Of a stretch of DNA of 64,000 nucleotides, positions 7,301 through 43,677 are shown piece after piece. Below the pieces are notes generated by a model, which had not been told where the DNA came from, searched no databases, and saw only the letters and a program-made list of their open reading frames with translations. How positions within the stretch are numbered: position 1 is the first letter of the stretch; the number at the start of each line of letters is the position of its first letter. Made by a program: the position numbers and the translations under genes. Source of the stretch: Botryllus schlosseri (taxonomy: Eukaryota); NCBI GenBank assembly GCA_051294905.1, contig CM119372.1:4776001-4840000 (forward strand), given 5' to 3'.

Positions 7301-10300
7301 TTGAGTTCTGCCTGCTGGGTTGTCGGTATGTCTTCATTCTCGCTAGTAGTGATAACGGATGTTTTTGAAGTATTTACCTCTTCCTGCTGGGTTGTTATCA
7401 CGTCCTCATTCTCAACAGTAGTAATAACGGATGCATCATTTCCCTTGCTATCTTGTTCAACAACATCGAACAAGCTCTCTGGTGGTAATACTTCCCCATT
7501 GATTTCTATTATTGGAATACTGTCCTCTAGGCTGTAGTCTGGTTTTGCTTCCACGCCATCATCAATATGTTGATACGATGGCGTTGATTTTTTAGCCTCT
7601 TCCACACTCGACACCAAGGTTTCCATTATAGAAGCGAGTACAGAGTCCGCTATTAAATGATAGTTGTGCATTGGATCAACTATTTCATCAAGACTACCAA
7701 AGCTATCATCATCACTTAAGAAATATTCCTTTTCAGAAGACGAGTATCCGTCCGACGCAGAGTCTACAGGTGAGATACTTGACCCAGCATGCTCAGTGTG
7801 CGAAAAACTGTCATCCGCCAGTTCGTTTTGCTGACCATATTCATCCGATATCACTATTGTCGGTGGCAATCGCGGAGGAGATTCACGGTCGACTATGTTC
7901 ACAATAGGATTCACATTAATACCTTCCTTGACAATATCAGATGGACTTTCTTCGATTTGCAATGCTGATTTGACTGCAGGTTCATCCTCTGCCGGTTGTA
8001 CCAGTTCGCTGACATCAGCGCTAGTAATCATTTCCGCAGACGACAGTTCTTTATCATCTTCTGTATTGACAGACTCTTCACTGCTTGATACACCCAACAT
8101 AATCGACGGAGCAGTCACATTCGGTGCTTGTAAATTCGCTTCTACTAACGTTAGACTAATTTCCGAATCCGCAGACCGTTTTGTTTCAGAACTGTCATCA
8201 ATAATTGAAGAGATGAGGCTTTCACGAGTGTGTTCTCCATGTTCGTCAGATGTAGCCTGTTCATTATTAATGACAAGCTCACTGCTGTTCTTTTTATCGG
8301 TCGATGGTTGAACTACTTTAGGAATATTGCCGGTTTCTGTGGTTACTGTTGCCTCAGATAGATCGATTTGATCTGGGTTATCAACAAGTTCACCAGTCGC
8401 TTCTCTTTTTGCCTTCTTTTTCTTTCGTAACGGAGGGGGTGGCGGTGTATCAGTGATAAGATGTGTTTCTGAAGCTACGGTCTCCAACAGCGCCTTTGAA
8501 TCTTCCGCATTTGGAATCGAGGTATTATGAGGCACACTTTTAATATTGGAAACCTCAGGGTTTTCACGGGGCGCTTGTGGCAGATCAATGTCGGGTTTCA
8601 TACAGGCTTCACTACGGTTGAAACATTCTTGTGTTGTGTCATTAGGTTGCACAGCATGGATCTCAGACGCATTCAGATCTAATGATCCTGTCTCCCCATC
8701 TGGAGCAAGTTGCTGCGCATCAATTTCCTCAAGAGGCAGAGAGTCCACATTTTTATCATCATCTGACAGAATACTTTCCACAGATAATTTTGGCAGAATA
8801 TTATCTGCCTGTTCATGAACAGTGCTAATATCTGCATTAGCATCTGCATGGATACCGGGTAAGGTTGAGATGTCCTCGCTTTGTGACAGGTCTGTATTGG
8901 ATTGCGCTGAAGATACATCTTCATGAAATATGGCCGTTGTCTCCAACGACGTTCGATCATAGAAGGAATTTTCATGTACTACATCTGCATCACTTGCTGA
9001 AGTCACATTCGCAGTATGTGTGATATTTTGGAGCATCTCTGGATCTGCCGTATCCAACTGTGGGGTGTTCGCAATGTGTTCCATCTTATTGTGAGAATCA
9101 TCAGTCTGTTCCTGACATTGAACCTGTGAATTTTCGACTGATTGAATATCAGCTATCTCTTCATTGGCATCATCTAGTTTCTGTGTAGAATCTAGTATCA
9201 TTACCGGTGAAATAACTGGTTGTGAATCACCAAGTACACTTTCCGAAGGAATGATTGGAGTAGGGGCTTTCTTTTCTGTCAAACCAGAGTCAAAATCTGC
9301 AAACATTGGATCATTCGAGGCAGTTGTTATATTATCCTGCATGACACTGCGATGAGCCAAATCAGATTCAACCTGAGGAAAAGATTCAGACTGCAATACA
9401 CCATGAATGGGGGGTTCCGAAATATTGTCAACTTCCATTACAGTAGGTATTTCTGATGACAATTTGATGTCTGACTCCATCTCAATGACTAAGGAAGCTA
9501 CTTTATGATCTTCATCTGCCACGTGGCCATCAGTCAACGGCTCCTGTATTTCGATGGTGTCCTGAGACAGCACCTCAGAATCAGGCATATTAGAATCCAT
9601 ATCTGTATCAGACTCAGTGTGCTGGTACAGGGGTGTTCCTGATGCAACCTCAACATTATCAACCGGTAAAGTATTCCTCTGCAGATTAGTACTTTCACTT
9701 TCCGAATCAGCAGTTTCAGTCAAAGGTATATCTTGATTTGTATCATCATCAGTATGCTGGTACCCGGACATTTCCTCGATATTCTCAACACTATCAATGG
9801 CCAAAGTGTTCTCCTGTGATTCGATAAGAGAAGCCACCTGAACTTGGGACGTGGTAGTTTCATTCTCTGATGGCTTATCAGATTTTGTGACGAGCACACC
9901 TTCCGTTAGCTCCATATTTTCATCTGTCGGCTTTTCCGGGGTGAATGCAATACCGCTATTTGTCGGAGTAATATGTTCTGCAGCTACAAACAAATTTTCA
10001 ACAGTCTGCGGTTCAGAGGTTGCTTCACTAGCTGAAATTTCACTTGCACCCGAGAGCACTGAAGTTTTGATAATACATTCCATTGATTTAGACATTTTTT
10101 CCTCATCATTTTCAGAATCTAGTGAAGAATGGACTTCAGAAGTAATTGAAGTCAGATTGGTATCGTTCGAAGACTCTGGAGGAGTTATCGTGGGTGTCAA
10201 AAGCACATGAACATCTGTGGGTTCTTTTTCGAACTTCACTTCATTGTCAGTTTCAGTACTACCGATGATATGTAACTGGTCAATCTCTGAAGAGAAATGC

Positions 10301-13300
10301 AACACTGATTGGGCTTCATCACTTGTAACAACCTCGGCATTGGTGATGTCATGTAGTGGAACATCTTGAACAGGCTCCAGGTCATTCAATGTCAAAGAAT
10401 TCTGTTCGTTGCGGGGCTGAGCATTTTCAGCAGTACCTGAACTCTGTTTCACCTCTTGAGAGAGCATTATTGATTTACTCTGAGGTGACAAATCTGCATT
10501 AGGCTGTTCTGACAGTAAATTCTCATCACTAATGATGCACACGTCTCTGTCAGATTGAGCATTCATTATTGATAGGTGGTGATCACTCGCGTTTTCGATT
10601 TCCAAAGACATATTGATTGGTTCAATTTTCTCACCAGCGTCGACAGCCCCAGCAGGTTTATTTACCGTTAATACGATTTCAGTACGATCTGCATCATTGA
10701 ATATTGTTGAATGATCTTGCAACTTATTGTGATCAGCATTACCAACATTTTCCTTGACAGGACCAGGGAAACATTCATCTTCAGTTTGCAAGACATCTGG
10801 TTTCTTTGAAGGTCTATCCACATTTAAAGCGAGCTGCTGGTCGCTACATATTTCTGTTGCATCCAATGCCACAATTGGTAGTGAAATATGTTGTGCATTC
10901 TGCAAGCCTGTTTCAGCACTGTTATTTGACGATACCGATGCTTCCGAGTCTTCCAGCAAATTTGGAGTTATTTCAGGTCCAATATCCATTGTTTGAGGAA
11001 GAGTAGAATCACAAGCTGGTTGATGTTCAGTTACAATTTCCTCGTCCTTAGATGTCAACAAATCATCCATTTCATGGTGGTGCATACCAGCAGTGTCAAG
11101 TGCAGAATCAATTTGAGACGGAGCGGTAATAATATCGATTTTACTTTGAGACACTGGAGCAATAGCAGATTGCTGTAAAGACAAACCCATATCTAAGTCT
11201 TCTTTTTCCGTAAATGCTTCCACGTTAGATTTAACGTTTTCCATCGATGCAATCATATCTTCGCCAGTGACATCGTCATCATCGTTCATGTGATCTTGAG
11301 CATTTTCAGATCCAAAATCGGTCTTCGCAACATCAGCAGCAATAGTAACTCCATTGAAGGATGAAATTTCAGTAACAACGCTTGCGGATATGTCATTGTC
11401 GAATTGTAAAGACACGGCACCTTCACCCTCATTCTCATTATCAGAATTATCAGAAAACGAAATAGTGTCACCATCCATTTTCATGGGCTCCAAATTATCC
11501 CTGATGACATGGAGAGAGTTATTTTCCACAATAACTGAAGCATCGGACAAATATTCTGCTTCCTGATGTTTAATATCCTCATCAGAATGTCCGGTTTCAA
11601 CGACCTTAGTATTCATGGTCGATGCAGTTTCATTAATCACATCCACAGATGGTGACTGTGAAATCTCAGCCTTTTTGAAAGACTGTTGCTGCTCTTCGGG
11701 TATTTCTATGCCACCCGACTCAACTACCGACCGTACATTCTGTGAACTTTCGGCTTCATTCGAAACGATTTCGGGATCAATGTTTTTTCCAGCGTTATCC
11801 ATCAGTTGTGCATCAGCAGATGCTGGCAGAACAATGTCATCTTTGACCTGATCGAAATCTGAAACTACATGAGTCTCGAATTCCAAAGAACCAATTATCG
11901 GACCATCTGCATTTCGTGCTATGTCATGGATTTCATCTTCTTTCAGGATACTGGGTTGCTCTGGAAATATATGGGTGTAGGTTTCAAATCCAGCGATCAA
12001 CGCCCCTTGCAAAATATCACTTTCGCGGGCTGACATTGTTGGTCGATTTTTGTCTGTCCCATTGTCCACAGTTTGTGACTGCGCTGAGTCAATTGATTGA
12101 TCGATTGAGTATGTACTACTGCCTGATGAAATTTCAATACAAGTAGTGTCATTGTCAGTCTTGATTATATCGGAAGTGCTGTAAGCGGTATCTTCCGCTT
12201 CAGGATCCTGATTCTGCACCAACTCATTCTTTACTTTATTGGCGTCTGAAGTTGAAACATCTTGATTTGCAGTCTGATTTTCACTTGAGATGGATTCACT
12301 TTCCACATCCTCAAGTTTCATTTCGGATTTCTTTTCATGATTCACTTCCAAGGACGATTGGTCATCAATTTCCGATGCATGTTCTCCTTGCAACGGAACT
12401 GGATTCTCGGATTCTTCTCTCAAATCATCTTCGTTTATTGTCAAAGATTCATCCGTTATGATATCGTCGACATCTTCAAATGCGTACGTTTCACGCTGAG
12501 TTTCAGATTCATCTATTTCACTCGGTTCACTTTCTTCCGGTATGACTGGCAAGCCAGAATATCTTCTGAGAGGATCGGTGACAATATCTTCCCAATCGGT
12601 ATCGTAAGCTTCGTAAGTGGTTGAAGGTTCTGGATCCAATTCAGGATAGGTGAATTCTTGATTCGGAATTTGCCTTATTCCATACTGCTTTAATGCAGAT
12701 TTATATTGAGAAATGGAGTCATCATAATCATCTGTAAATGAGCTATCATTGCCATCAGCAGGGTTATAGTCGTTTGAACTTGAACTGCTGCCGGATTCTG
12801 CATCACTTCCATCGTCAGAAAATAATTCCCTGTCAATGAATACGGTGGATGGTACTGACGAGTAATTGGTGTAGAAGCTTGTCGGCAAGGAAACGGACTT
12901 TTTAATGGATGACGAAGAAGACTGTGCTTCCGTGTTCCCTTGCACTTTCACAGAAGAAAATTCATTGTCCTCCGTATATACATATTCAATATTATCGGCA
13001 GATTGAGAATGCATAAGTTCAAGCTCATCATAATCTGCTTCCGGAAGTGGTGGCGGTGATTGATATTGACCACGGTAGTCACTGAGCACTTGATTGCCAT
13101 CTTGTTCATCCCGAGTCAAATGGCCTTCACCAAAAACTTCATCTGAATTCTCAACCGAAATGATGACAGCAGTGTTGCTGTCATATTCCGCATCTGATGG
13201 TATACTTCCATCTACTTCAGTTAATCCGACTATTGGCGGTATTTCTCCATTGCTTTCCTGGCCTGTTGTGATATTCATGTGCTGATCATGGATATCATGA

Positions 13301-16300
13301 CCTTCAGCTCCCAAAATGTCCTGATCGCTGCTCTCCGAAGGGTTGTCTATCGATCCAATATTCCTTTCATCCTCGACATTATTTATGAATGAAGTGGACT
13401 CTTCGTCCTTTGGAAAACTTGTCATATTCTCATCAATTTTTAACAAGCTCTCATTGCCCTGAGTTGACTCGATTCCTTGTCTGCCAGCTGGCAAAATATC
13501 CATATCGTCGTCTGACATGGATTCCATTAGCGACATTGGCTTATCTTCAAGTTTATGAGCTGGATCGAAAGCAGAAACTTCTCTGGCACTATATGGCTGT
13601 GTGTGATGTATATCTTGAATGTTATCAAAATCATTTTCAACCAAGTCAGTTTTATCATTAGCAGAAACTGACGTTTTTTTCAGATTCGATTCCATATTGT
13701 TGTGAACTATTTCAGAACTGGCTTGCCAACTGCCTTGTTGCTTTTTCTCACATATTTCTACCAAGTTATTATTAATCCTCTCGGGATTACACTCACCATT
13801 CTTCTTGGAAGATTCGATCACTGGATCCATAGCCAAATCATCAGTCAGGTTTATTATTTCATTCTTTCCACTCAGCTGTCCAGCATTGACATCTCCTTTT
13901 ATCTCGGGGATATTGAAGCCAGTGTTTGCCGTTTTTAATAGCGAATCATCTACTATTTCACATGCTTGGCCGCTATCATTTCCAGATGTAATATCCTCAT
14001 CCTCAGTTGCCTTTTTCTTCTTTTTCCGTGTCGGAATTACCGGTGGGGCTGCTTCTATTGAATCGGACATTTGATTTGAGGGAGAAGATTCTGAAATTTG
14101 ATGTTCCTCGTTTTCAACAGCAACCAGGTTGGTGGTGTCACTTGAATCCAGCATATTGCCATCATCAATATTGTTCCTTTTCTTTGTTCGAACTGGAATG
14201 ACTGGCGAGGATTCCTCATCTTCGTCTAAATCCTCAATCGTCGATGTAGTATCCAATGTTTCATATCGTTCGGTGGTATCAACGGCGTCATCACTAGCAT
14301 ACTCCTTGTGATCAATACTTTCGTCACTAGAACCATCTGACATGTATTCTGCAGCAAGCTCCTCTTCCACAATTGATATTGCAGTACAGATGATATCATC
14401 CACAAACCGCTCAACAAGTGCTGTGGCAACAGATCCACTGAGCAAATCTGAAGTTGAAATTTCATTTTCGAAAGCATCTGCATTTCTATTATCCAATTCT
14501 TCAAGTGAATCGGTGTCTGTGATATCTGCTGATGCATCGGATGTGATGGTTTCTTCGGTTTTCTGTGGGTATACTTCTGTAGACAAAATGGAGTCTGCAA
14601 TAAATTTACCTTCTGGTAAAAAAACATTTGAATGGTTTTCATCTGTTACAGACCCATCCTCAACATTCTCAAAAGAGACTGCTTTCTTTTCTTCTTCTAC
14701 GAATGAACTGGGCTGTTCGTTATCTGGAGCGTTTCCCGATATATTCTCTCGCGTGTCCTCTAATTTATCATTGGACATCAAAACTGGAGAAACCATGAGG
14801 TCGTCAGAGTCGATTTGAAGTCCATGAGGTTCAGAAGATGCACGTTCGATCACAGACGATTCATCTTTAACCACAGGGTTAATGCAAGTGTTTGGTCCAT
14901 CAGTCTCACTTTTGCTCAGACTCATTTGATCCACATAGTCGATACCAACCTGGCAAGACAATCCTGTGTTGTTTTCAGGATCTAATGGTAATATGTGTAC
15001 TTCGTCTTGTATTTGGATAGGACTTCCGACGCTTTGTTTAGATTCAGGCATACTTGTAGCAAAAGAACTGTCCTCATTGAGGTCAGAAGTAGCACTTGAG
15101 TTGCACATATCATCCTCCGTATGAGTTGTAATATTAGAGGTATCGTGTTTGTCTTCGTCACCAGTAAGTCGTTTACCTTCACTCAATGCACATTCACTTA
15201 CATCATTTATTGAAGTTGTTTGCATGTCATTGAATGCACTGGACTCGGTATAAGTTACAGTGGACTCACTAGGCTCTAACATTGAATGATCACTGTCAAT
15301 ACTTGCGTCACTGTTCCGTGAACAACCACTGTCTTTGTTTTCTGTATCATCATTAACTATATTTTCATCTTTACATAAATCCAAAGCACCATCTTGATTA
15401 ACAAGCAATTGCTCATTGCTGTCAGACATCATCACTGATCTAACATCTGTTGTTGCACCTGACAGTCCAATCATATGATCCCCTTCATATTGAGTGTGTT
15501 TTGATATACCCTCTTGAAACGCTAGCTCACCCACACTATCCACGCCATCAGTAGAAGTGGTAATATCATTGAAACTTTCAAGTGTGTCTTCTATTATAGT
15601 ATCACATTTTTTGGAAACATTTAACGATGAGACGTCCTGTAATAACAGATCATTGCTTTGTTCATCATGAACAACCAAATAATCCTTTGTCCCATTGTTA
15701 GCTTGTGGATTTTTGAATGGCTGAAATGATTCGACATCATGGCATGATTCGCCAGTTTCAACACCAAATATACCCTTTTCGGTATGCATCGAGTGTTCAG
15801 CGATATTACCAACTACAAATTCAAAACCGGTGTCACGTTCAAAGGTTAATATGTCTTCCCAATCTTTCTTATTGGTCTTTCCATTTAATGTATTATCTTG
15901 CAGCAGATCAACATTTTCTGTGCTTGGTTCCATTGTAACACTGCCCAGTGGCAACATCACATCTTTGTCTGGCATTGGATTGTCACTATTTTCAGGATTT
16001 GACAGTAATTCGGATGTATAAACATCATGGCTCAGTAGGTCTGGCAGTAAACTTTGCTCGCTCTTATTAAATGCATTCTCCTGATGGACAATATGTTCAT
16101 TAGATATTTCATCTTTTTCTGCAGACCCGTTATCTTCAACAACCAACAATTGGTTTTCTTGTGGCATCATCATAGATAGTTCGAGTGAGACAATCTTGTT
16201 TTTATCAGTTGGAGTTACGGGTGATGCATCATGCTGCTCCGTCAAATGACAGTCATCACCATCAGGCAATAAGGTAGTAGGTTCTTTAAAATCAACCTGT

Positions 16301-17418
16301 TTTCCATCGCACATTGCCAAATCAATTAATCCACTATGGTCTTGCTGAGGCTGATCTATAATGGGTTTTTCAGATAGTGTTAGCAATACGCCTAAACTAT
16401 CGGAAGCACTTGTAGCAATTACAGGTGATTTAGCCGATTCAGGTTCATGAGCAATGCTTGGTTGAGTGGCTGCTAAAACACGGTCATCACAATTTGCTTC
16501 AGCAGCAGTTGAACTTGCTTCACTTTGCAACAAACAACTCACGGAAGCATGATGCGGAGAGTTCTGATTGGTACTTTGCAAAGTTATATTACCTTCTACG
16601 TTGAGGGATATTAATCCAGATTGATCAAAAAAGTTTGACTGGTCTCCTGATTTTCCCACTGCACTGGTTACATTCAAAGGCGACAAATCTTGCTCTACTG
16701 TAGCTTGTACTGGTGCCGTACCACACTCGAGCAGCTCATCAACATTTTCAGCATTCCTCTCATTTGGTTTCACATATTGATCACCAACGGTTTGTCCTAT
16801 TGAAACCAAAGCATCTTCTGAAGAAATATCAGCTTTATCCATTTCAATGCTTCCACCGAGTTTGTTAGGGTCCGAGAGAACAAAACCTGTCTGGATACCC
16901 GCTGTATTTTCAATCTCATCCAAATCAAACAAGCTATTATTCTTGTTAACAACTACAGAGTCACTTATTTGAAACAAGTCACTATTTTGGAATCCAAACC
17001 CAGACAAGTCCCTGTCAGCTGTTGCCTCACAAGCACCGGCCTCCAATTGCGAAAACCCACCTGAAAGATCAACAATGGAGTTGTTTGCTTTAGTCTGGAT
17101 TGATTCGCTTGTATCGAAGATGCCCAACACGTCATCGGTATTTGCGGAAGTGTTAGATAGCATCAGCGAATGTACATTTCGGTCCACATCAAAACCTGAT
17201 TGAGACGCAGAGTTGCTAGCTGCATTCCCAACATCAAAATCCAGCAAGCTACCACCTGGTACATTTTGTAATGCTAGACTGTTGCCAGCTATGTTGCTGT
17301 CAGCATTGTCAAATTCCAATAAAGACTGATCAACTGCATTCGACTCGCTGGCATTGTGTCCATTTTCTGTCTGTGGTACATCATTCCCGAATATATCCAA
17401 TATATCATTTGCAGACAT
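1386..17418 (-). CDS. Giant acidic protein with C-terminal BNIP-2/BCH (CRAL-TRIO-like) domain; BNIP2/BNIPL/ATCAY/PRUNE2(BMCC1) C-terminal family; ~3,731 aa
   Basis: Exons (minus): 17418-7244, 7184-7105, 5927-5724, 4534-4448, 4392-4150, 2855-2756, 2681-2478, 1488-1386. All are GT-AG with consistent phases. The C-terminal exons give KRKSLVPPSSLVLSV, WETVTIKNIEYRIDEALVQPYKRVIAHGG|FYDEK...YDWIMDNIFL|YVLATVELL...IDYRLKKNVEAFYILNSSFYFRT|...KMKYVKNMAELK...VPPEIAK*. This parallels BNIP2 (VDMKAIEPYKKVISHGG, YLMDNLF, YVIGTLELL, LRKNLK). The start ATG at 17418 is inferred; an in-frame TGA lies at 17445-17443. Confidence 0.88.
4649..5109. mobile_element. hAT-like MITE with ~70-bp imperfect TIRs
   Basis: tagagtggagtg...cactccacccta; TSD ttggccat at 4641-4648 and 5110-5117. 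Confidence 0.85.
6209..6242 (-). ncRNA. Minimal type-I hammerhead ribozyme motif, sense to the host BCH-gene pre-mRNA
   Basis: The reverse complement reads acccCTGACGAgtgtcagccGAAAataTTCgggt. Variant copies lie at 6060-6093 and 6358-6391. Confidence 0.72.
6452..6485 (+). ncRNA. Minimal type-I hammerhead ribozyme motif
   Basis: Stem I accc/gggt; CUGACGA box; 1-bp stem II (G..C); GAAA box; palindromic ATAT stem III; UUC cleavage triplet. Confidence 0.72.
7244..17418 (-). CDS. Single 10,175-nt coding exon; D/E/S-rich, predicted intrinsically disordered
   Basis: Uninterrupted ORF 7240..17424. It ends at the donor TAT AT|GTAAGA (phase 2), which joins the 7184 acceptor in frame across a 59-bp intron. 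Confidence 0.9.
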
Positions 17419-17960
17419 TGTCAAAATTGAAACACATACTTCTCATAGCATATAGAAGAAGATAACAGAAAATATAGTCCTTGAGCTCACGCAATCTTGT
17501 AACTATACATTTAATAAAGGCCCTTGTTGCTGGGAATCACTTTCACCACATCTGTCACGTACCCAACACCAAAAAGTACGCTGCTCCTGGTCAATCATTA
17601 ACTTCAATCAATACGGAGCCCCGAGTCCCTTTTTGCATGTATGTTTACCTTACTGTCATATATTTGTTGGAAACAAGAATTGGCCTTGAAACAAACTATT
17701 CCGTGCCGGCCACGCAAACAGCAAACATTGAATGCAACATTCCAATGCGACTTATCAATAACATCAACAGCAAATATACAATTATGCCCTCGGCTTTGCG
17801 GCAAGGGTTGGCATCAAAGGCTAATAGATTATATTGATAGAGTCAAGTAAGGGGTACGGTGAAATGAATAGCTTAATTTTGTACCTATGCATGAATTGAT
17901 GTCTTCCTAAATGTAAGCAAAATTCACATTCCTGATTTGAAGAAGCTGTGGGGAATATCT

Positions 17961-20900: not shown

Positions 20901-23840
20901 TTCTATATCGAGCAGAGTTGTAAAAATGCTATTGAACATGATTTCAACTTCAAAATGAACGGTGAACACAACAATTTGGACTTGGACTCAAGTCACAACA
21001 CTACGACTCGACCCTATGCACCAAGACTTGGACTCGAACTTGACACTGTGGCGAATTGAAAATGACTCGGTCGTGACTCGAGTCGAAACTATAAAAGTAA
21101 GATTGACTTGTGACTTGGTTGCATGTAGCTGTAGCATGGTCACATCTTGCAAAATATGTGATAAAGATTGAAAAGCACGAAGACAGGGGTGGCCAACCTT
21201 TTCGGCTAAAGGGCCACTTGAATATTGATGTCCGTTTTTAGTGGTCCGATAGGAGCGAGAATCGGATTAGGTAACGGTAAAAATAGGACTCATATTACTA
21301 CGTATCAAAATCCATAACAATTATGCCATGAAAACTATGTGTACATGTGCTAGACCACGGGTTGGACACCCCTGCACTAAGGTATATGACAGTACCTTTG
21401 AAGGACGTGGTGATCAACGAGAGTGACATGTGCATCCAGTGCATGTGTTCCAAAGAATTTCTCGAAACTCAAGGTATCACGAAATATCAAATCCTTCTTG
21501 CCAACGCCACATCTCTGCAACACATAGACTGTTTCTGTCTTCAGTCTAAACATATCCTCCTCAACGTTGAGAACCGGAACGTGGCATGTGTGGTCATTTT
21601 TGGGGCGTGTCTGTAAAAGAGTAATGTATTAAATCATTCGGGTTGCCGTATGAGTTACATGCTGCGTAGGGTTGTTCAAAAATAACTTAATTTTAGCTCA
21701 TTTTGGCTAAAAAAAACGTTGCACACCAAATTTGGCTCAATTCCAAACAGTAGAAGTGAAGTTATTGGAGTAACAAATTTTGGATTTGAAAAAAATAGTA
21801 TTTACAGTACCAACCATGAATACTATTATTTCAAACCCAAAATTGTACAAAATAAAAACTTAGTTTCTAGCCTATTCGTTGGAATTGAGCCAAATTTGTT
21901 ATGCATCGTTTTTTTCATACGACTTGATAATTTTATGGGGTTGCCAGTAAATCTTCAATAGCTTCTGTTTAACGGGTTGGAATTGAGCCAAATTTAGTGG
22001 GCAATGTTTTTAGCGAACCTAACAATTTCATCGAATAGCCTGTAAAATTTGAAGAAAGAATTTACTTTTGAACAACCCTAATGCGACTGAGATAGCCTAC
22101 AAAACGACCTACCTCTGAACAAAACCAGGCGTATAGTAGCGCAGACAGAGCAGAGTCTTGATCGCATGACTCGTTTCCGAATATAAAATTGTATCTCTCG
22201 TTCCGTGGATTAGCGTCGTTTTCTTTGAACTATAGATTATTTGCACTTCAGTAACAAATATAGGTATATTCATTTTTTCAAGGCCCATTCATAGTCGCTC
22301 CGCCCCGAAGACACTTTTATCCGTTACCTCAGATATGAGATCCTTTCTCTCGGAAGTGTGGAGGGTATATCCGTGATCCTAAACCTAATCCTGGGAAGAA
22401 TTTGCTAGCGATATACCCTTCTCCCTTCACCTGGGTCTAGTGAAACACTGTCGACTGATGACTAACATGACTTGATATGGTGCATGTCTCAAAGAAGTGC
22501 CGTTATTTTAGGTAATCGAAATGTCGATGTTGGATTGCGAGAAAATGGTAGTATCATTCATAAGTCGAAGATGATATATCCAAAGATATAATTGAACAAG
22601 CCATTTGGGGTACAGAACTTCAGAATAAAGCGAAACAATAGGCTAACTTCATATTGTTAATATATAGAGAGAGAGAGATATGATATTCTTTCTCGCCTGC
22701 ACCATCGAGATGCTTTGGCGACGGAGTTGCGATACGGCCCCATGAGGTCATCTAGTCTGCGCCCCCGTTTTTTTTTTCTCCTCCATGCTATCCGTGATTG
22801 CTGAGCGCCTAGCAGGATAGCTGCGGATACCATTTTTCGAGTCTTTGGTATGACCCGGCCGGGGATCGAACCCACGACCTACCGCTCGAGAAGCCGGACG
22901 CATAACCATTACACTATCTCGCTCGGTGTTAATATATTCGCTAAAAGCTGCGACAGCCGATTCTCTGTCGCCAGAAGGAGCGCCTCTACACTCTTAGAAT
23001 ATTTTATTAATGTTTTGTGTCGTTGTCTCCGGTTATTTATAACCAAATATGTACTCGTTAACGTTTGTTTTATATCGCAACTACCGTATCTTGCCTGTCT
23101 ACTAGTTGTTTGTTTTTGTTATTATTACGTCATACTACTGACGTTCGCTACTGATGAGAGTCAGTCGAAAAGCTTTCAACGAATAAATTAACAATATGAA
23201 GTTATTGTTTCGCGTTGAAGATATATTTGCTAAATAATTCTTTTGTTCAGAAATACGCCTAATGGTGTGAAACTGTGCATTGATCAGACGAGATATTAAT
23301 ACCACTGGATTAAAGAAATTTTCAGTAATGGCGAATATTGTTGAAAGTAAGGCTTGCCTCCTTGCACTACCCACTCAAGTAGATGTTTCAGTCTACTTTA
23401 AATTCCACTTGATGGTTTTGAAGTAAAATACTTTATATAAATTTTATTTCGTAAAGGAGTAAGTAGTTCTGCATCAATTTTACTGGTGAAATCGTCATAA
23501 CGACTGGGCGCAATAGGCCTTGTATCTTGGTATCTGAATATTTTTAGAAAAGTGCACCTAGTGTTATTATAGTAATTTAATGTATTGTTACTTACGAAGA
23601 AACTACTTGTAATTGAGTAGGAATTTACACATTACTTTTACTTTAACCGCGTCTGGACTTTCATATGACCAAGAACTCTTGCTAATTTGAAATGTAAAAC
23701 AGTTTTTGCTGGTCATCCACGAATCACGATTAGATTATACCCATGTTCTGAGCTCAGTGAATTATTTTAAAAGAAGGAATAAATATATTTACCTTATTCA
23801 CTAGTTCCGTGCGCTTTCCCCTTAAGAATCTCGAAAGCAT
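17961..23840 (-). CDS. prune: Prune exopolyphosphatase / DHH-DHHA2 phosphoesterase (PRUNE1-like), 9 coding exons, ~385 aa
   Basis: Exons (minus): 23840-23793, 22229-22113, 21610-21396, 19857-19652, 19575-19461, 19400-19331, 19152-18919, 18353-18265, 18024-17961. All are GT-AG with matching phases; total 1158 nt. Translation: MLSRFLRGKRTELVNK|FKEND...FIFGNESCDQDSALSALLYAW|...HVPVLNV...LIFRD...VTLVDHHVLQ|...EIIDHRP...VGSCMTLIAEKIL|GPILLDTVNL|...AKYCVDGLTVKDLLLK|DQK...|...KASRKQLLPIVQSSIS*. These match the Prune motifs GNEXCDXDS, DHH, DHR, VGSC, LLD and SRK. Confidence 0.93.
20637..20673 (+). ncRNA. Third-family minimal hammerhead motif, U3-A8 core variant
   Basis: aactc-TTGAAAA-gaggcaccc-GAAA-agtc-TTC-gagtt. 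Perfect 5-bp stem I and a compensatory C3G8->U3A8 change. Confidence 0.5.
21667..22080. mobile_element. MITE (TAGGGTTGTTCAAAA TIR)
   Basis: 15-bp TIR. Related sequences at ~5255-5657 (with a ~138-bp internal duplication) and ~24755-25147. Confidence 0.7.
22667..22922 (-). mobile_element. tRNA-derived SINE with a Meta-SINE-like central domain and (TC)n tail
   Basis: Minus strand: A box TAGTGTAATGG, B box GGTTCGATCCC, then GGGTCATACCAAAGACTCGAAAAATGGTATCCGCAGC...GCTCAGCA. Near-identical copy at 49222-49481. Confidence 0.85.
23144..23183 (+). ncRNA. Second-family minimal hammerhead motif with partly decayed stem I
   Basis: ttcgcta-CTGATGA-gagtcagtc-GAAA-agc-TTT-caacgaa. Palindromic AGCT stem III, 2-bp stem II, 5/7 pairs in stem I. 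Preceded by a T-rich tract. Confidence 0.55.
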
Positions 23841-24121: not shown

Positions 24122-26391
24122 AACCAAGACTAAACAGCGGACCGCCTGGGGCCGTGTTGCTTCGAATGGAAGGGTGTCGTCGCAGTGTTCGGATAACAAA
24201 TGTAAATTTGTGGTACATGCTCGTTCGTTTTTCATCTTGGTGCACACTGCACAACGTCTGAAAACCAAGTTTATATATCAGTGCCATTGTGGTCCCTGGT
24301 CACAATCAGTCAGTCAGTCAGTCAGTATGCTTTTATGCATCCCACCAACAAACACAACATGTATGTATTGGGAGACGACGGGGAACCGGAAGGTCTTAGA
24401 TTCAGTCGCCACCCAGCGGAGTTATAAATGAGTAAATATGGCAAGATGTAAGTCTATCACTTACGATTATGACAGTTAACCAATGGACATAAAAATAACA
24501 AAAGATCACAATACCAAACTCCGTTACAAAGCAATATTCGATACTGATTTTTGGGGGTTCCAGGGCCACGAGCAGAATAAAGTTGATATTTTCGAAATCA
24601 GCACCTCGGCAGCTTTCGATCGATACCCATCTTATAAAATTTAATTCTCGGAAAGCCGGACAAAAATTACCATCAAATTCCCTTTAGGCAAAGAGAAAGT
24701 GTGACGTAGCCCAGTTTCACTGATCCGTGAGATTTGCTTGGGTCCACTGTCCACTAGGGCTGTTCGAAAAAAACTTTTTTTCCTGAATCTTGCTAGTTAC
24801 GTGATTAAATCGTTAGGTTGCCTTAAAAAACGACGCACACCAAATTTGAATTCATTCCAACCAAAATTCGCGGATTTCGTAGAGTTTGAAAATTTTGAGT
24901 TTACCCAAAAATGCAAAAAAAAAAAATTTCATCAAATTTTTCTGTCAACCGCATGAAATTGTTGCGCTGTCTTCAAAAACAATGCAAAACAAATTTGACT
25001 CAATTCCAACCCGTAGAAGCTGAGTTATTTGAGTTTTTCTTTGGTAATTCGGGGATGATCATTGATCTGGATAATCCAAGAATTATCATCAAAAAACTCA
25101 AATTTGCATTTGCGCACGTGCGTAGCTTAGAGGGAACATTGGCCCTAGCTATATGTTACGGAGTACGTTATGTTGTAATTTTTGCAGTGGCTCGAGTGCA
25201 GTTTTACTGGCAGCCCCCAACAGAGGATGCCCTATTGTAACTTCGATTGGATTAAGTATTTAAAGAGTATCAGAAGAGCCCAGGCTGGCATGAAGCGTCT
25301 AAGGCTGTGGGCTGTCCGAAAATGGTAACCCTTATATAAGGATCTCCCGCAGATTTTGCGTTTTCAGCATTGCATTTTGAGATCAGTTTGTTACGGACAA
25401 GTGTGGGTTTGTATATGACGTCACCGATTCATTCGCAAAAATTATCTGCCAATCCAAGTATTATATTCATTTTGCGGCGTCTCAGAGGCTGTCTTGTGGA
25501 TGCCAGATTAAGAGACCGCAACTGCTGGCCGTTTGGCATCCTCCTATCTCTTCATTACACCGCATTAGCACTTATCGCATTGTAGATTGCGTGTGTGTTG
25601 ATCAGAGGAAAATCTGACGATTATAATATTTGATATTGATATATTATTAATTATACGAGACTTCTTGCTGACAGAATGCCCAGGCCAGATCGTCACCGCT
25701 TGTGGGCACAGACGAGTCATAGTTCGTGTCGAAGGCAGTGTGCAGCACACTACAGTGTGCACTGTTCAATTGTGCATTGCGATGGCGACTCGAATTACGA
25801 GCCGCAAGTTGCCAGCAGGGCTGCACAAAATGAGTACCTGAGCGATTCTATTTTGAATCGAGGATTAAGCTTCAAGTCGAGTCCAGTCCACTAATGACGA
25901 CGTCATAACTATGTGGCTGATGCGAAAAGTTCAAATATGTTCCTGTTATGAAGGCACAAAAAACATAATGCCATAATATCTCGCATATGTCTAATAAATT
26001 GCATTAGAGATAATTTTGGCATTTATTCGACCGTACGTATTTCATTGCACTTTGTGACAATTTGGCGGGCTGATCACGACTTCACATGAATGTCGTTCGT
26101 ACTAACGTGCATAGTTTTAGTGTAGGCGGATCGATAAATTCTCTGATCTGACTCCGATCCGAACCCTAGGCCGGATTCTTGAAATGACTTGAAAGATCCG
26201 ATCACAAAAAAAAAACGATAATCATCATCTGCGTTTCTACGTTCTATATATTTCTAGTAAACTACAAAAACAGTAGGTCATACGATACGGGTTCAGAATA
26301 CAATAACAGCTCACAGGTTCGTTTTTGACACAGGTTTTTATTGGCGGCTACCATCGCCTGGTTGGTAGTTACATACAACATTCATGATGGC

Positions 26392-27439
26392 TAGGGCGAT
26401 TTTTTTTTGACATGTCAAAATTTGTCAAAATTGTAGCGTTAGGCCTACCGTTGTAAACGGCTAATTGTCTGCTCATTGTGAATCATAAACGGTCAAATAA
26501 AACAAATAGGTAGACATGGTGTTATGGTCAACGTACCGCAATATCCTATCTGAAGAAAGACTTCTTGGGCATTGCATCATTCTTATATTACGAAGCGCAT
26601 GATGAAAAAGTGTGATGTAGACAACATTGTCAGAATGAAGCAACACAGTGTGTGACCAGCAGTGTACACTCAACTTGAGTGTTGTCAGCCAACAACTGCT
26701 ACTGTTGAGCGTCCTTGGCAAGCTTCTTAGTAAGGACATGCACTTTCTACCCAAGAATGTAGGAAAGTATCTCTCGTTGTACTACAAGAAAATTTAATTA
26801 TTTCTACCATAATACGTATCGTAACCACTGGAATTCTTAATAGGGTCAGATTTCGCTAAAATAGTGTTTTTTTTTCATGTAAAAAGTGGCCTGTTTCTAT
26901 GCCAGAAACGTTTTTTCAGGCCAAATTACTGCGTTAGGACAGCCAGAAATGAATTTTAACATTATATGGGAAAACACCTAATTTGCATACAGCTTCTTTG
27001 AGGTACAGAACTTCAATATTTCAATTGAATAGTATATTCATATTGAAATGAACCCGAATATTTTCGGCTGACACTCGTCAGGGGTAATCGTCAGCAACTA
27101 GTAGAGAATTCGAAAGAACAGCGTATATCAACAATCGTAACACAAAATATGACGTCACCAGCACGAAATGTCGAATACGAGAGCGTTGAATGTACTATTT
27201 TTAGATGATACACGAACTCTTTTTGTTGACACAGCCTTGGCTGGTGTATTTGATTACCCCTGACGAGTGTCAGCCGAAAATATTCGGGTTCATTTCAATA
27301 TGAATATACTATTCAATTGTAATTTGCATACGTAAGGTCAAAATTTGGTCAAAATTCAGTTTGTTTGGGTCAAAAAAAGTCAAAATTAATATTTTTTAGG
27401 TCAAAATTTACCTTTTTTTAGGTAAAAAAAAACGCCCTA
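26392..27439. mobile_element. hAT-like MITE (TAGGGCG), host to the hammerhead element
   Basis: tagggcgatttt...aaacgcccta; TSD atgatggc at 26384-26391 and 27440-27447. Confidence 0.8.
26991..27319. mobile_element. Same hammerhead repeat as an inverted pair, flanked by a 12-bp target-site duplication
   Basis: Intact cores at 27052-27085 (-) and 27256-27289 (+). TSD taatttgcatac at 26979-26990 and 27320-27331. Nested in MITE 26392-27439. Confidence 0.75.
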
Positions 27440-27600
27440 ATGATGGCTTTTGCGACAGAGCCGGCTAAAAATATGACTTTGTGATGGAACCGGTTAAAAT
27501 ATCCCTTTAGTCAGTGATAGAACCGGACCGGATGTCGAAAATCTGAATCAGCGGCGGATTTTGGAAGTGAATATCAAGATAACAGTATAATAGTTTAGTG

Positions 27601-33068: not shown

Positions 33069-34329
33069 AATCTACTATAGGTCCTGAAGTAGGTGCATCC
33101 AGACATCGGAATCTCCAGTAAGGCCATGAGCATTATTTGGTGATATGATTGTTGATATACAATGTTCATTTCAATTCTCTATAGTAGTTGATGACGATTA
33201 CCCCTGACGAATGTCACCCGAATATATTCGGGTTTATTTCAATATGAATATAGTTTTCAATTACATACATCAATTAAAAGCTCTGCAGTATATATTCAGG
33301 AAATAACAAGAACACACACTAATCACAGACTAAATAAATATTTAATTTTCAAGAAGATATAGACTATGTCAATGAACATTTAAATATGTTAAGACTTCGT
33401 TCTCGAATTGTAACGGGTTATGCTATTCCCAATAATCCTATTGCTTCGATTTTTTTTCTGGAGTCTTTTACACACAAAGGATTGGTACCGGATCGTCGTA
33501 CTAAAAGGCAAAAAAATCCATTTATAGTAAGCCAAATGAAACCTAATTTATTGCAGAACGGCGAGATAAAGAGGTTCGTCGCTAAATAAAACAATAATTT
33601 ATGCATATTGAAACAGAGAATCATAAATCGATAATTTCACTTCGTCGGAAATCTCAAGACTTTGTACTGAACAAATCGCAGTCTACAGAGAGACTGCCCA
33701 ACGGCAATGAGTCAAAACAGAATTTATTACCATTTTTACAAGCGGCCAAGACACCCTTGCGGCTTTATACCGACCGGTGACCCAATTTTCGTACAGGTAT
33801 AGCTCGACGCGAACGCGAGCCGATATCACCGAAAACATTACCTTCGCCATTTTGTACGGAGTAATCGCTATTCGCACCCGTGCCATTGACATGTAGGTAG
33901 ATAGTGTTAGATAAAATCCTTACGTATTAATACGAATTACCAAATAATTTCGTGTTTGCGCTTCATGTTTGATGCGTATTGCAATAAGAAAGACCAATTA
34001 CTCGGCTATTCCTATTCAACAATTGTGCTTACTGTGGATGTAAGAGCAGAATAGCCACGGCCACGGCCACATTGGTAATAGTAATCAACGATGTAAAATT
34101 TGTACTAGTTTTCGGGCTCTTATTAGGCTGCAGGTTCTAATGAGGCTTGGTTTCGGGCTCAAACGTAATCGGGCTGTAGGTTACTGTTTCGATGATTTGC
34201 TTACTTTTCTCAATAAAAATACACCAAGCTGACATTTACTAGGGCTGGGCACAATGATTCGAGTACCAGAAAGTGCTACTGCAACCCACTCTATGGCACA
34301 AGTATACGTTTGTTCATCACGATGAGGGT

Positions 34330-35068: not shown

Positions 35069-38000
35069 TATAGGGTTGGTGTGAACGTGAGGTTCACGTT
35101 CGCGTTCTGTGTGTGAACCTCAGAAATTTAGCGGTTCACGTTCACAAACGAACCTTGCATGGTAGGTTCTGCACATTGAACCTTTTTCATATATTACAAT
35201 TTTCACGTCATTATAACATCTTTGGTTTAAATTTATTGCATTTCAACCGCGGGCCACTCCATGCACGGCGCTGGCAGCATGAAAGATCAACACTAAACGA
35301 GCATGCACCTTGAAAATCTCAAAAAATTTACTTGCTTTGTTACAAAAGTTTGCTCGAAATATCCAGCTTTCGCTTTGTGAATATTTAGTGACTCTCGGCT
35401 GTGAGCTTGACCCGCAATCATACAACATCAAGAGCGAAATACAATACATGTTGGTAGTCAGCGAATGATGCTCGTTCAACCAATCAATGAAATTGATATC
35501 GTTGTCTGATAGGCCTACTACCCATTTCATCTTTGTATTTCGAATTGCAATCTCCATATTTACTGACGGCCACTCCCGACGAGGGTCAGTTGAAAAGCTT
35601 AGAGTGAATAAATTGCGAATATGAATGTGCTGTCCGTTGCAATATTCAAATTCTGTACCACAAGCAACCTATTTAGATACAATAAACATATGCAATCAAG
35701 ATTCACCCCGTACGCGTGCTAGACTTTTTACATCAGACAACGATATCAATTTAATATATTGGTTGAATAAGCATCATTCGCTGACTACCTACATGTAGTG
35801 TATTTCGCTCTTGATGTTGTGTGATTGCGGGTCAGGCTCACAGCAGAGAGTCACTAAATATTCACAAACGGAAAGGTGGATATTTCGAGTAAACTTTTGT
35901 AAGAAAGCATTCAGACCGTTCATTTTCTGCTTCAACAAGTAGATTTCAATATCCAATTGACTAACAAACGTCTGCAAAATCTGGTCTTGACCTACTTTTT
36001 GAAACTACTTCATGAGTACTATTTACCATGATATGATGGTATATCTTATAAGTGTATGTGTGCACAAAAGCAACCCACAATAGGTAGAAAGTTCCTGCCA
36101 CTGTCCATTTCAGGTTTAATAGACTTGTGCACAGCCAATGATATATAAATGATTGTTCACAGCATATACTTTGCATAGTCATTTAATTGTAATGTTGTCC
36201 ATGTCCAGTATGTCAATTCCTACAATCATAATTGACTTGCAAGATGGTGACTTCGAAGAATGGGACGGAATAGAGACTGTCCAACAATCCCCTTCACTCA
36301 ACAAATTTCCGACTTACACATCATAATCTATTCCTTAAACAGTCGAGGTGATCATGGAAGAAGTTGATCGAATCCGAGCGTCATAACAATGTGTCATCGG
36401 ATGGGTATTACAGAAGCAGGATTTTGAACAGCTTAAATACCTCACCTCTTCATGGACTCCTAAATGCGCTGATACTAGTCGTGACTAAATTTCAATGAGG
36501 ATGCCAACACCATAATATCATTGAGAATTTTATACAGGGTATAGATATTTCATTTACTATAGCACTTAAAAACTGCATAAACAACTTTTGTTATAATGTC
36601 AGACTTGTTGTCATCTAAATTCAGAATAACAAGAACCAAAATCCTAGTCAACAGAAAGCATTTAAGTCAAGTCAATATGTAGCAAAAAGGGATTTTCCTG
36701 TTTATGCAAATTACAATCTCTGATATAGCCTACCTATGTTGAAGCCATTCGATAAATGTACTGTGTGCATCTATTTTTGTTGTAATTTATGAAACCGTGC
36801 TTTGCTATTATGAACAATCGAATAACTGTGCCTAATAGTTGATAACGTGAATGTTTCTTGTCACGTAACAAAAATATATGTTCTCAAATGTTATTTTTTC
36901 GAGCTTTCTTATTCTACCTTAATGACATAACAGTACCGTACTGCAGTTGGATGGTAGAGCAGCGATTTTACATGACGTTGAGCATTGGAGGGCATTGAAG
37001 CATCAAGTACCATGGCAGTTGAACACTAGTATGTTTCCAGCCTCTTTAGAAATCAATTATTCTTTAAAAATTACCATATCGCAGGTAAGGCCAGATTTCC
37101 TGATCAGGCTAAAAATGATTCCAATAACGGGTCAAGACTCAATCTCTTGGTGATAATGAGGTAGTCTGCTCGATGGATTGGCAAAACTGTCCGTATCAAA
37201 TTTATCATTGTTGTTGTTTTCTTGTCTCCTTGATAAGCTTCCCTGCTCACGAATTTTGTTGCTGTTTCTGCGGCATAAGAATATGTCCAGTTTTGCAGTA
37301 GCGGCATATCTTTTTCCAGCTAGTACAAGTGAAGCAATATTATCTTTAATGCAATATGGCTTAAAATGGCAGTTGTAGCTGAACTTGGTTGTGGTATTCA
37401 CAAGGCACACAAAATTATCCACAGATTGCATTGTAGTGTCCATCTCCTCATCTCTCGCACTCGAATAATATGCATAGTCTTTCAGCAAGACTATTTTTCT
37501 CTGCATCAATCGATCCAATGAGTATCAAATCCAATCCGGCACCAATCGTCAAAGTATTATTCATTTTGACTACAATCTTTGGAAATATCTCAATGTCTGA
37601 AGCAGAGTGGAACATGACATGGTTGCTTCTCATGGACTGCCCGGCGTCCCAGAATCCCATTTAAGATAATGATTTGCACTTTTATTAAGATCCCTAAATT
37701 CTTTTCAATTTCCTCGCGGTTGTGGGTTGCTTTGCGGCTGTTTCAATACACAAACAATCTTTTCTTGAAAGTTAGAATGGGCTACAACTTTTAAATTGGT
37801 CAATTACGGTCCTGTAAAAAATTTATGCATTAGACATTTACAGAATGGGAATTTGTTATGTCACAGTTTTGCCAGTCAACTACAATTGAAATCAAGGTAA
37901 ATATTCAAGCCGTCAGTATTTTCCGTATTACCGCAATCAATGAAATTGATATCGTTGTCTGATAGGCCTACTACCCATTTCATCTTTGTATTTCGAATTG

Positions 38001-38623
38001 CAATCTCCATATTTACTGACGGCCACTCCCGACGAGGGTCAGTTGAAAAGCTTAGAGTGAATAAATTGCGAATATGAATGTGCTGTCCGTTGCAATATTC
38101 AAATTCTGTACCACAAGCAACCTATTTAGATACAATAAACATATGCAATCAAGATTCACCCCGTACGCGTGCTAGACTTTTTACATCAGACAACGATATC
38201 AATTTAATATATTGGTTGAATAAGCATCATTCGCTGACTACCTACATGTAGTGTATTTCGCTCTTGATGTTGTGTGATTGCGGGTCAGGCTCACAGCAGA
38301 GAGTCACTAAATATTCACAAACGGAAAGGTGGATATTTCGAGTAAACTTTTGTAAGAAAGCAAGTAGATTTTTTGACATTTTCAACGTGCATGCTCGTTT
38401 AGTGTTGATTTTTCTATGCTGCCAGCGCCAGGCATAGAGTGGAACGCAGTTAAAATGCAATAAATTTCAACGAAAGATGTTACAATGAAGTTAAAGTTTT
38501 AGTATACGAAAAAGGTTCACAGTGCAGAACCTACCAAGGTTCGTTCGTGAACGCGAACCTCTAAATTTCTGAGGTTGACACACAGAACGCGAACGTGGAC
38601 GTCATATTCACACCATCCCTATA
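35069..38623. mobile_element. Foldback-type DNA element with ~440-bp TIRs (TATAGGG ends, P-superfamily-like), interrupted by a 2-kb insert
   Basis: tatagggttggtgtgaa / ttcacaccatccctata; TSD gtctgtag at 35061-35068 and 38624-38631. Arms are ~35069-35509 and ~38185-38623. Confidence 0.75.
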
Positions 38624-41600
38624 GTCTGTAGATACCATCGGTTTTCAACCGCAAGCACGCGTCTACTTTTCTGCCGGAGCGCCAGATGCATCACAATTCT
38701 GTATCTCAATTTCAAAATACAAGGTGCTGAAAGAGTGTTTTTCAACCTATTGATAGCTCTGGCCCACGATCTGTTTTGAAAATAGCCCCTGGCCTCTATC
38801 AAAATCCCGCTCGAAATATTCAATTAATGATATCTTGGTGACCTATAGTAGGGACAATTGAACGACATGACTGACTTCTTGGAGTTACATAACTTCGATA
38901 TACTGTAGCCTACTATTGAACAATATATTCATATTGAAATAAACTCGCCTAATTCGCTTGACACTCGTCAGGGGTCATCGTCAGCAATTAGTAGAGAACT
39001 TAAAAGAACTGTGTATATCAAGAGTCACATCACCATTTTTTTCAGTACCTGATATGATAGTGAGCGCTATGTATCTATGTGGTTTCTTCTCTTTCTAATG
39101 GACCAGGAAACCAGAACATGAACTATGGGATCACGTCCATCGTTTAAGGGGCGATGTGCTTTAAATATGATGCGGCGTCAAATTATAGTTGAATGCGTGA
39201 AAACCCCCAATATCTTCGGATGACACTCGTCAGGGGTAATCGTTGGCAACTATAAAGTTATTGTCTTATGGATAATTTTGTCCTAGCGTGGCAATAAATA
39301 TCCATCCATTTGCCACAATTTTAAATGACGGGTAAAGCTATATAACGCTTGCGTAGCGAAGGGTGTATAATCTCCAGCGATTGGGAGATAACACTCAAAT
39401 AATGTCATCATTTCCAATGCTTGTATTTTGCATATGCTTCAATTCTCTCGTCAATCGTTGTGCGATCTTTGAACATATGTTGATTCTGATTTCATTAAAG
39501 CGGACAAAATGTAATCGTGATTACTCTTTTGATGTAATCGTAATAACAATCGAATAAGTTGTGTTTTCGCGTAAACGTATTCACCGATGTCAGGAGGAAT
39601 CGTAATCGTGATCGATTACATTGGCACAGTGATCGCGCCATATCTGAACTTAGTGATTAGCGGTCAGCGTCTAAATGAGAGGCATCATTCACGAAGGAGG
39701 GTACATTGCATATCCAAAAGCAATATTCCCAATGTGAAATAATTTTACCAGAAATTATTCATCCACTGTGTATAGTTTCACTTGTAAACATATGCTGACG
39801 CCGTGAGAAACTTGGTGCGGACAACTGCTGGTAATTGCATTGTCCATTACCTCGCCAATGGGGTTGAATAGCATTACAGAATGGCCAGTGGAGAACTTCT
39901 TAGAGGTACAGAACTTCAACATACTATTAAATAGTATTGGACTTCATTTCATATAATATTCAATTGAACAAAGACCAGTCTACACTGCTAGCGTAACGCT
40001 TAAGTCACGTCGATCGTAGTATGAGAGTTTCACATTCTCGATGAAGGCTGATGTAAATTCGGCCTAATCTGCAACTCCGTTTTCAATGTGTCATAGGTTT
40101 CCCGTCAGAAATGCGTCACATTATGAACAGGCATGTCCACAAGAATCGGCACAAAATTCATGCAATAGGCGACACTCGTTTGTACATAATACAACACTAG
40201 CATAACATATTTAACACATATCGACTTTATCTCCGGCTTACTTATATGCGAACAGAATGTACGGCACAGTATTGATTTTGCGTTTTTTTTTATCATAGCT
40301 CATTCGTTTTGCCACTGTGCGACGACGTTAGGTTTTTAAATCAAAAGTAGTAATATAATACGATGAAATTGAAAAGATGCATGCACAAAGCACCATCCGA
40401 GAATATATACATAGATATTCTTGTGCTATGTAGGAACTTAAGTTGAGGTAGGTGATATCGACAGCAAGTAGATTGTATTGCTAGAGATTTTTTAGACTCT
40501 CCACGCCCGTAATGATAGATTAATAGATGTCCATCATCTGCACAGGTTTGAATGCTGAGCATGATGAGGGCGATTGAATTTCAGGACAACGTGCTGTCAC
40601 TCCATTATCTGGCTACCCTTGACTTCTATCTTCGCAATATAATCCCAACGGACCAATCGGAACAAGATAGAAGATCGTCTAACCTGATCGAGGGCGTTAA
40701 TCTGCTACTAATCTGTATTGGAATACTTTATCCTCACTTTTGTAGATTATGTTTGCACATCGCAAGTAATTTTATCATTGCTGAGCAACCTAACGTGACA
40801 ACGAAAATCACGCCCAGCGCAACATGATTTGCAATGCTTCCAATGTTGTTGTCGTATTTGTGTTGTATATACCGGAATGCGTAACGCCTCTGAAATTATA
40901 GCTAGTCAAGACGGCGCTCATATCGCAGATTACCGAAATACCGTCAACGCAATCACGACACGCGGCGCCTTTGAAAGCCCCACCGAGCCTGACATGGCCG
41001 CAACAATATACATGTCGGAAGCGATACCACCTTTCCTTTCGCTTATTTACACTGTGTTCTAATGAAGAGGCATAAATCCAGGGAGAAGTGACGTGAGTTT
41101 GCGCGAAGAGGCTAGTAATTGCTCATTTCTCCAACTTTGTAATTACTGTTTTACCATGAAAACAAATACGAGACGCACGCAGACGGCGTGGTTTCATTGA
41201 TCTCAGGCGCCACTGAGATCAGAGCGCTCCACGCGCGTTATATTGTGTTTGCAGTCATATTTTGTATCACGAAACAATATTTCATTGTTACCATCATATC
41301 ACAGAACCAGATTGAATTCCATCTAGTCCCGTCCGCGTCCGCGAGGCTGAAAACCGCCTTGTAATAAAGTGAGTTAACACAAGTCAGGGATGTTCCATGA
41401 CGATATTCCGACACATATATGCTGGCGGTCCTTGTGATGTTTTGTCGTGACTGATTTACAATGAATTAATAACACATGACGTCGGTGAGCGTAACAATAC
41501 GGGATTTATAGCTACGGCACATTGATTGCACAATTAGACTTGCAAATACAATATTTCATTACAACGGCCCAATAAAGCGAATGGGTGAATTTCTTGTGTG

Positions 41601-43160: not shown

Positions 43161-43677
43161 TAGGGCTGGGCAAAATCGAGTAGCCGAGTGATTCAATTCT
43201 GAATCACGTAATATGCTTCGAGTCGAGTCGAGTAATCGAGTATCACTCATTATGACGTCATAACTGAATGTAATAAGTCAAAGTTCAAACATGTACCGTT
43301 TATGCCACCATAAAGAATATAATGCCTCTTATACATCTCATAAATGATACTTTGGTATCATTTTGACCATCCGATTTCATTCCACTTGGTGACAATTCTG
43401 TGGCATAATCATGATTCTGGAAATGTGCTACGTCCAGTAAACTTTCGTAGCTTTGTACTATATGTTTCGTATGCTATGATACCGCCAATCAAGGTTTCAA
43501 GGCTTCAACAGTGAAAATTAGTATTGAAACTGTAATTCTCGTTGATAAATTAACTTTCAGTGGCGAGGAGCGTATAATTTCAGTACTCGAAAAAATCGTA
43601 TTTTACTACTCGACTCGAATCATTGAAATTAATACTCGATTCAGATTCGAGTACTCGAATCATTTTGCCCAGCCCTA
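43161..43677. mobile_element. hAT-like MITE, inverted copy of 17-532
   Basis: Same TIRs and interior in reverse orientation; TSD gtcattaa at 43153-43160 and 43678-43685. Confidence 0.9.

Follow-up and report, generated by a model that had tools for sequence, protein, structure and literature searches.

Here, we describe a MITE copy of Botryllus schlosseri that has taken up a discrete insertion at a site with a 12-nt stagger; in this insert, two outward-facing copies of one high-copy family are joined head-to-head. Judging by its anatomy, the insert is very probably a dead-on-arrival, 5'-truncated terminal module (pLTR plus minimal hammerhead) of an EN+ Penelope-like retroelement (PLE). The features of PLE insertions that are present include an inverted 5'-truncated copy, a 31-nt one-sided tail, variable 5' truncation and a short TSD with its empty site, and the asymmetry and one-sided tail correspond to the standard PLE insertion pattern. 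The insert is a real but ordinary instance of a pattern that has already been described. As a single locus it matters little, being a clean example for which the empty site is now shown. The family has modest value as a dataset, as it is young, high-copy and sharp-ended, and its TSD length, junction microhomology and arm identity could be tabulated. All positions refer to the window, i.e., the whole stretch of 64,000 nucleotides that was analysed.

The insert, its host MITE and the empty site

The host MITE, the insert and their parts are as follows:

26384-26391 (+): left copy of the 8-bp TSD of the host MITE, ATGATGGC
26392-27439 (no strand): host MITE, with TIRs at 26392-26407 and 27424-27439
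26979-26990 (+): left copy of the insert's 12-bp TSD, a sequence that other MITE copies have once
26991-27251 (-): long arm of 261 bp, a 5'-truncated pLTR-like element end
26991-27021 (-): 31-nt 3' tail, on the long arm only
27052-27085 (-): minimal type I hammerhead of the long arm, predicted cut after 27056
27089-27095 (-): leader GCTGACG, 7/7 complementary to loop II TGTCAGC and missing from the short arm
27229-27248 (no strand): small imperfect hairpin that immediately precedes the junction; folding energy as RNA, -6.3 kcal/mol
27251-27254 (no strand): junction of the inversion, head-to-head at 27251/27252; microhomology (GAT) of about 3 nt
27252-27319 (+): short inverted arm of 68 bp, which stops at the tailless terminus CAATTG
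27256-27289 (+): minimal type I hammerhead of the short arm, predicted cut after 27285
27320-27331 (+): right copy of the 12-bp TSD of the insert
27440-27447 (+): right copy of the 8-bp TSD of the host MITE, ATGATGGC

Without the insert and one copy of its TSD, the host MITE is 707 bp long, and its 16-nt TIRs are 94% alike. Short TIRs, an 8-bp TSD and high copy number fit a hAT-type MITE; the wording hAT-like is given here by the 8-bp TSD only, which we take to be a hAT mark. A relative of the right end of this MITE (74% over 92 nt, opposite orientation) was observed at 2134-2222.

To look at other copies of the host, 4 of the 24 listed public runs were mapped to 26250-27600 at 85% likeness. 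None of the mapped pieces extends across the 27-kb locus itself. Of 937 joints and 3251 loose ends, 15 and 24, respectively, were listed, and those discussed below come from this list; many joint sides are shorter than 40 nt. Along most of the MITE plus insert, the summed contig depth was 3-5 orders of magnitude above that of the unique flanks, which implies that both are abundant repeats, depth being no measure of copy number. The left flank runs straight into the 12-mer in 212 records of run X1 and 120 of run X3, and the loose-end consensus before 27320 matches, by eye, the 30 nt preceding the left TSD at 26/30. Among the joints listed, one that skips the insert (26991->27335) was found in 5, 3 and 1 contigs of X1, X3 and X6, respectively, further ones being 26989->27336, 26990->27341 and 26946->27320; none of the joints listed for RNA run X23 skipped it. 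Taken together, the flank-to-12-mer records and the skipping joints indicate that other MITE copies contain the 12-mer once and lack the insert. The preliminary description had proposed a discrete insertion rather than local slippage, to be checked by recovering the empty site from other host copies; the site was recovered in these 212 + 120 contigs, and the proposal holds.

Many positions of the host MITE copy deviate from the majority allele, while the arms and the TSD are exact, which suggests, but does not prove, a younger age for the insert than for this MITE copy. It is likely that the insert entered after the MITE had arrived at this place. Alternatively, it could have travelled here within an already interrupted MITE copy.

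The insert comprises 329 bp between exact 12-bp direct repeats, TAATTTGCATAC. When a 329-bp interval was placed at random 300 times (+/-10 nt at each end), a flanking repeat of at least 12 bp was never obtained, the largest being 10; the TSD length may be off by about 1, owing to microhomology of the element at both TSD edges. The long arm extends 170 nt upstream of core C3. The plus-strand short arm begins 8 nt ahead of its core and is identical at 68/68 positions to 27022-27089, the arms being exactly complementary. Family contigs span 27084-27247 and run on past 27251 (38 records in X6), and hence the spacer is family sequence and the long arm is 5'-truncated. By eye, the consensus of this continuation beyond 27251 opens with GAT, as does the short arm. 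The tail follows CAATTG in family copies as well (668/632/79 contigs and 263 reads, seen as loose ends at 27321). Thus, the exact 12-bp duplication reported in the preliminary description is confirmed, as is the interruption of the MITE at 26392-27439, with the 16-nt TIRs and the 8-bp TSD in place. The inverted pair described there is indeed head-to-head, but it is asymmetric, with a 261-bp tailed arm against a 68-bp tailless arm.

Hammerhead motifs

Each hammerhead core is composed of stem I ACCC/GGGT, CTGACGA, G...C, GAA, the palindrome AATATT and C. Under a strict descriptor, 5 such motifs were counted in the window and none in any of 200 shuffles, which bears out the earlier observation of two cores in opposite orientation at 27052-27085 (-) and 27256-27289 (+); a looser pattern yielded 10 cores. 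These two had been called intact, and both cores are, but the right copy is without the 7-nt leader that is present in the left one. An Rfam search of the whole window gave no match at the gathering score, the best weak match being RAGATH-1-hammerhead (24.1 bits versus a cut-off of 56.3, E 0.076).

The terminal-repeat motif fits a type I minimal hammerhead in its core, its short helix I, G10.1-C11.1 and a palindromic helix III. Stem I has 4 bp and stem II one pair only, G-C; stem III, the palindrome AAUAUU, implies a dimer according to PMC4209133 and PMC6765202. Metazoan PLE min-HHRs, as presented in PMC4209133 (Cervera and De la Pena 2014), have a 4-5-bp helix I, a palindromic helix III and G10.1-C11.1, and occur as pairs, one motif per strand, at a distance of 100-700 bp. 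The family described here shares with them the core, the 4-bp helix I, G10.1-C11.1, the dimer-requiring palindromic helix III and the dual opposite-strand motifs at such a distance. On the other hand, the min-HHR consensus of PMC4209133 includes a long helix II and, after position 9, an unpaired nucleotide, both of which are absent here, stem II being 1 bp with a 7-nt loop complementary to the leader instead of a 7-8-bp helix plus an extra unpaired nucleotide. This helix is a trait in which the ribozyme varies, rather than one that characterises the element class. Our literature search found no hammerhead with a 1-bp stem II and pseudoknot, although the supplements of PMC4209133 may contain such variants, and no Penelope hammerhead in ascidians, which does not imply absence from print.

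It is possible that the leader and loop II form a pseudoknot, the modelled pairing amounting to -9.6 kcal/mol versus -5.1 for the competing pairing with the core. Covariation was examined over 9 window copies (8 distinct); the 51-kb copy and the cores at 38.9 and 44.5 kb, which are the most decayed, were set aside. It gave 1 compensatory pair for the pseudoknot, with 303/500 shuffles as high, and the hammerhead fold was not favoured over a two-hairpin fold in the same 9 copies. In the short-arm context, antisense family sequence at 27225-27232 (+) could replace the missing leader at loop II; this pairing is probably due to chance.

The predicted monomer fold sequesters the core, and pair probabilities of stem I are only 0.02-0.14. 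With its two cores on opposite strands, the 27-kb locus offers no way of dimerisation in cis, and for the read-through RNA a single long hairpin is predicted (-154 kcal/mol). Given this hairpin and one sense core per strand transcript, the locus is unlikely to act as a ribozyme. From 6% of RNA run X23, 4176 reads were mapped, only 174 of them at a likeness of at least 99%, with the strands about equal. No pile-ups of read ends were observed at the hammerhead in this run, which is one bulk library of a type unsuited to the question of cleavage.

Inverted pairs and the origin of the insert

Four inverted pairs were identified in the window (27 kb, 6.3-6.5 kb, 39.9 kb and 44.4-44.6 kb). Those besides the 27-kb pair are:

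6286-6528 (no strand): second inverted pair, with a tailed (-) arm and a tailless (+) arm
39896-39968 (no strand): degenerate, very short pair of a tail arm and a tailless arm, in which neither a hammerhead core nor a TSD was found
44416-44647 (no strand): older inverted pair, with a tailless (-) arm and a tailed (+) arm; TSD not found

The tail is on one arm only in all four pairs (4/4). The TSD was resolved in two of them and is 12 bp in both (12/12 and 11/12 matching); the second, at 6286-6297 and 6517-6528, bounds a pair that is nested in an older family copy. Copy ends were examined for 13 of the 14 in the window, the decayed 39.2-kb copy having been left out: 8 of the 13 are tailed, and 5 end at or beside TCAATTG. 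Family 3' ends occupy two fixed positions 31 nt apart, and the 5' ends are variable. Inner junctions differ both between the window pairs and between family contigs, examples among the listed contig joints being 27076->27269, 27100->27278, 27101->27255, 27107->27253, 27159->27270 and 27167->27297. Decayed solo or partial copies of the hammerhead family are also present at 33134-33263, 38875-39085, 39202-39252 and 51066-51226. In addition, some contigs pass from the tailless 3' end into an inverted tail (joints 27321->27025/27026), implying that there are also copies arranged end to end or one within another.

Similar structures have been reported for PLEs. Adjacent pLTRs in inverted orientation, a tail of 31 bp and TSDs of 8-10 bp are described in PMC3846280 (Arkhipova et al. 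2013), PMC8557442 (Craig et al. 2021) shows a neighbouring 5'-truncated copy that is inverted and a one-sided tail of 30-40 bp, and inverted pLTRs and short 3' extensions are listed as PLE peculiarities in PMC8969392. With the EN+ PLE insertions of the first two papers, the insert shares a head-to-head inverted 5'-truncated copy that is shorter than the main arm, a 31-nt tail at a single end, a short TSD, and targets consisting of other repeats and the own family. It differs in that the 27-kb copy is without an ORF body, none being linked to the family, and in that the TSD is 12 bp in both resolvable cases, as compared with the 8-10 bp cited above from PMC3846280. The steps that produce tandem and inverted PLE structures are still undefined according to PMC8557442.

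Based on published PLE biochemistry, the following course of events may be proposed. A GIY-YIG/RT protein supplied in trans would nick both strands about 12 nt apart, and one nick would prime reverse transcription at a distal start, which would give the tail, the cDNA running for 261 nt. The other end would be completed from a proximal start, without a tail, the two 5'-truncated products would join head-to-head via about 3 nt of microhomology, and gap filling would give rise to the TSD. PMC11167929 (Frangieh et al. 2024) reports cleavage and extension on both strands, with two RT starts defining the tail, for Anolis Poseidon PAc. That element resembles our family in two fixed 3' ends one tail-length apart, in an AT-rich target and in RNA-seq without RNA ends piling up at the hammerhead site; in contrast, it is autonomous and was tested in vitro, whereas the family reported here is known from sequence alone.

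An element of the same class could also have generated the mirror arm from a single cDNA, which would start from the top-strand nick, fold back via GAT and prime itself up to the tailless position. We consider this possible, if somewhat doubtful. The arms within young pairs are identical (27L = 27R and 6b = 6d, 0 differences), and the 27-kb and 6-kb loci differ by 2 over 68-69 nt, so that the arms share locus-specific variants. However, arm identity might also come from a uniform RNA pool or gene conversion, and 6b has itself been interpreted as a local duplicate, with 2 differences between 6c and 6d. A palindrome lies at or next to the junction both at 6.4 kb (GAATTC) and at 44.5 kb (TGACGTCA), and PMC3846280 argues from junction palindromes that self-priming occurs; yet the arms of the 44-kb pair differ at 21 positions over 68. 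Moreover, folding back alone gives no reason for the constant stop of the short arm, whereas two RT starts, as reported in PMC11167929, do provide one. A more detailed version of the PLE reading would assign to the family a fixed 12-nt nick stagger, two fixed RT starts, a mirror arm made from the long-arm template via 3-nt microhomology, and a 1-bp stem II held by a 7-bp leader pseudoknot; as a whole, we regard it as rather unlikely. If it held, counting the many genomic copies could by itself decide between two primed cDNAs and fold-back.

Much less probable is a non-autonomous non-LTR retrozyme, in which a small hammerhead RNA would be circularised and reverse transcribed in trans. The type I hammerhead, the lack of a visible ORF and the TSD of more than 4 bp (for the last, PMC7229834) are what such an element would show, and the readings overlap, as the preprint 10.64898/2026.07.22.740005 derives retrozymes from PLE pLTRs. 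Going by PMC7229834 (Cervera and De la Pena 2020) and this preprint, the family has in common with non-LTR retrozymes that it is short, apparently non-coding and high-copy, with a type I hammerhead and a long TSD; but retrozymes are head-to-tail tandems, defined by repeats with a hammerhead each, and the 27-kb locus is a head-to-head inverted pair with a one-sided tail. A family tandem (149 nt, 2.8 copies) does exist at 6004-6412. However, every unit of it contains the target 12-mer and the older family copy picks up again after 6528, which fits nesting plus local duplication, and the region 6004-6590 can be interpreted as an older copy that received a young pair, with a local duplication that mimics a retrozyme tandem. 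Among the 15 of 937 joints listed, there was neither a fixed monomer junction nor, in RNA reads, a circular-RNA back-joint.

The perfect 68-bp inverted arms, the fixed outer ends and the 12-bp TSD in 2/2 resolvable cases would also be expected of a non-autonomous DNA transposon or fold-back element with long TIRs, a fixed 12-bp TSD and a hammerhead-like motif by chance, which we judge very improbable. The inverted repeat reaches one end only, the other end having 31 extra nt; arm lengths and interiors vary by locus, several copies are solo and 5'-truncated, and family contigs display many different inner junctions. Neither TIRs extending symmetrically to both ends nor a shared fixed interior were found, and a TIR DNA transposon is largely refuted. 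The preliminary description had favoured retrotransposition over a family of fixed TIRs and fixed TSD length. Its preference is supported by the variable 5' ends and junctions, and the arms are unequal with varying inner ends, but the two outer ends are fixed and both resolvable TSDs are 12 bp. That the inserted sequence belongs to the MITE itself or stems from local slippage has a negligible probability and nothing in its favour: empty-site contigs occur in three runs, which refutes it, and at least 10 core copies are found elsewhere in the window, outside the host MITE.

Coding capacity and other features of the window

No ORF for a telomerase-like RT plus GIY-YIG endonuclease was recognized by eye among the 19 ORFs of at least 120 aa in the window. 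With none tied to the family, PLE membership rests on anatomy. The 32-aa frame upstream of the hammerhead had 0 matches among 1.84 billion representatives and 0 in Pfam, and pattern scans of viral, metagenome and GTDB contigs gave 0 matches to family copies. In EN+ PLEs, the ORF begins within the pLTR and tail. From an ATG at 27041 (-), the 6.3- and 51-kb copies have a frame of some 17 codons that crosses the tail; it is too short to exceed chance and is shifted by one base in the 27-kb copy. By eye, the consensus beyond 27251 contains, in one frame, a 10-residue stretch with W..LL. This presumably resembles PLE endonuclease C-termini, but it carries no weight, as all three frames are open.

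Several further features were observed in the window. On the minus strand, 7240-17442 is an acidic, low-complexity open frame of 3400 codons, probably one giant exon. A homeodomain exon (PF00046, E 7e-23) is located at 52483-53130 (+), the homeodomain being placed at 52483-53127, which marks the window as animal DNA; we assume that its homeodomain is posterior-Hox-like. The region 47052-47864 (+) is a possible upstream exon and has no Pfam match. Other TIR elements were noted at 43161-43677, 17-532, 3710-4077 and 21735-21890, the first of which has an 8-bp TSD and TAGGG ends and is 91% like that at 17-532. Finally, 35481-35909 and 37934-38362 form an exact 429-bp direct duplication, which is either a recent duplication or an assembly artefact.
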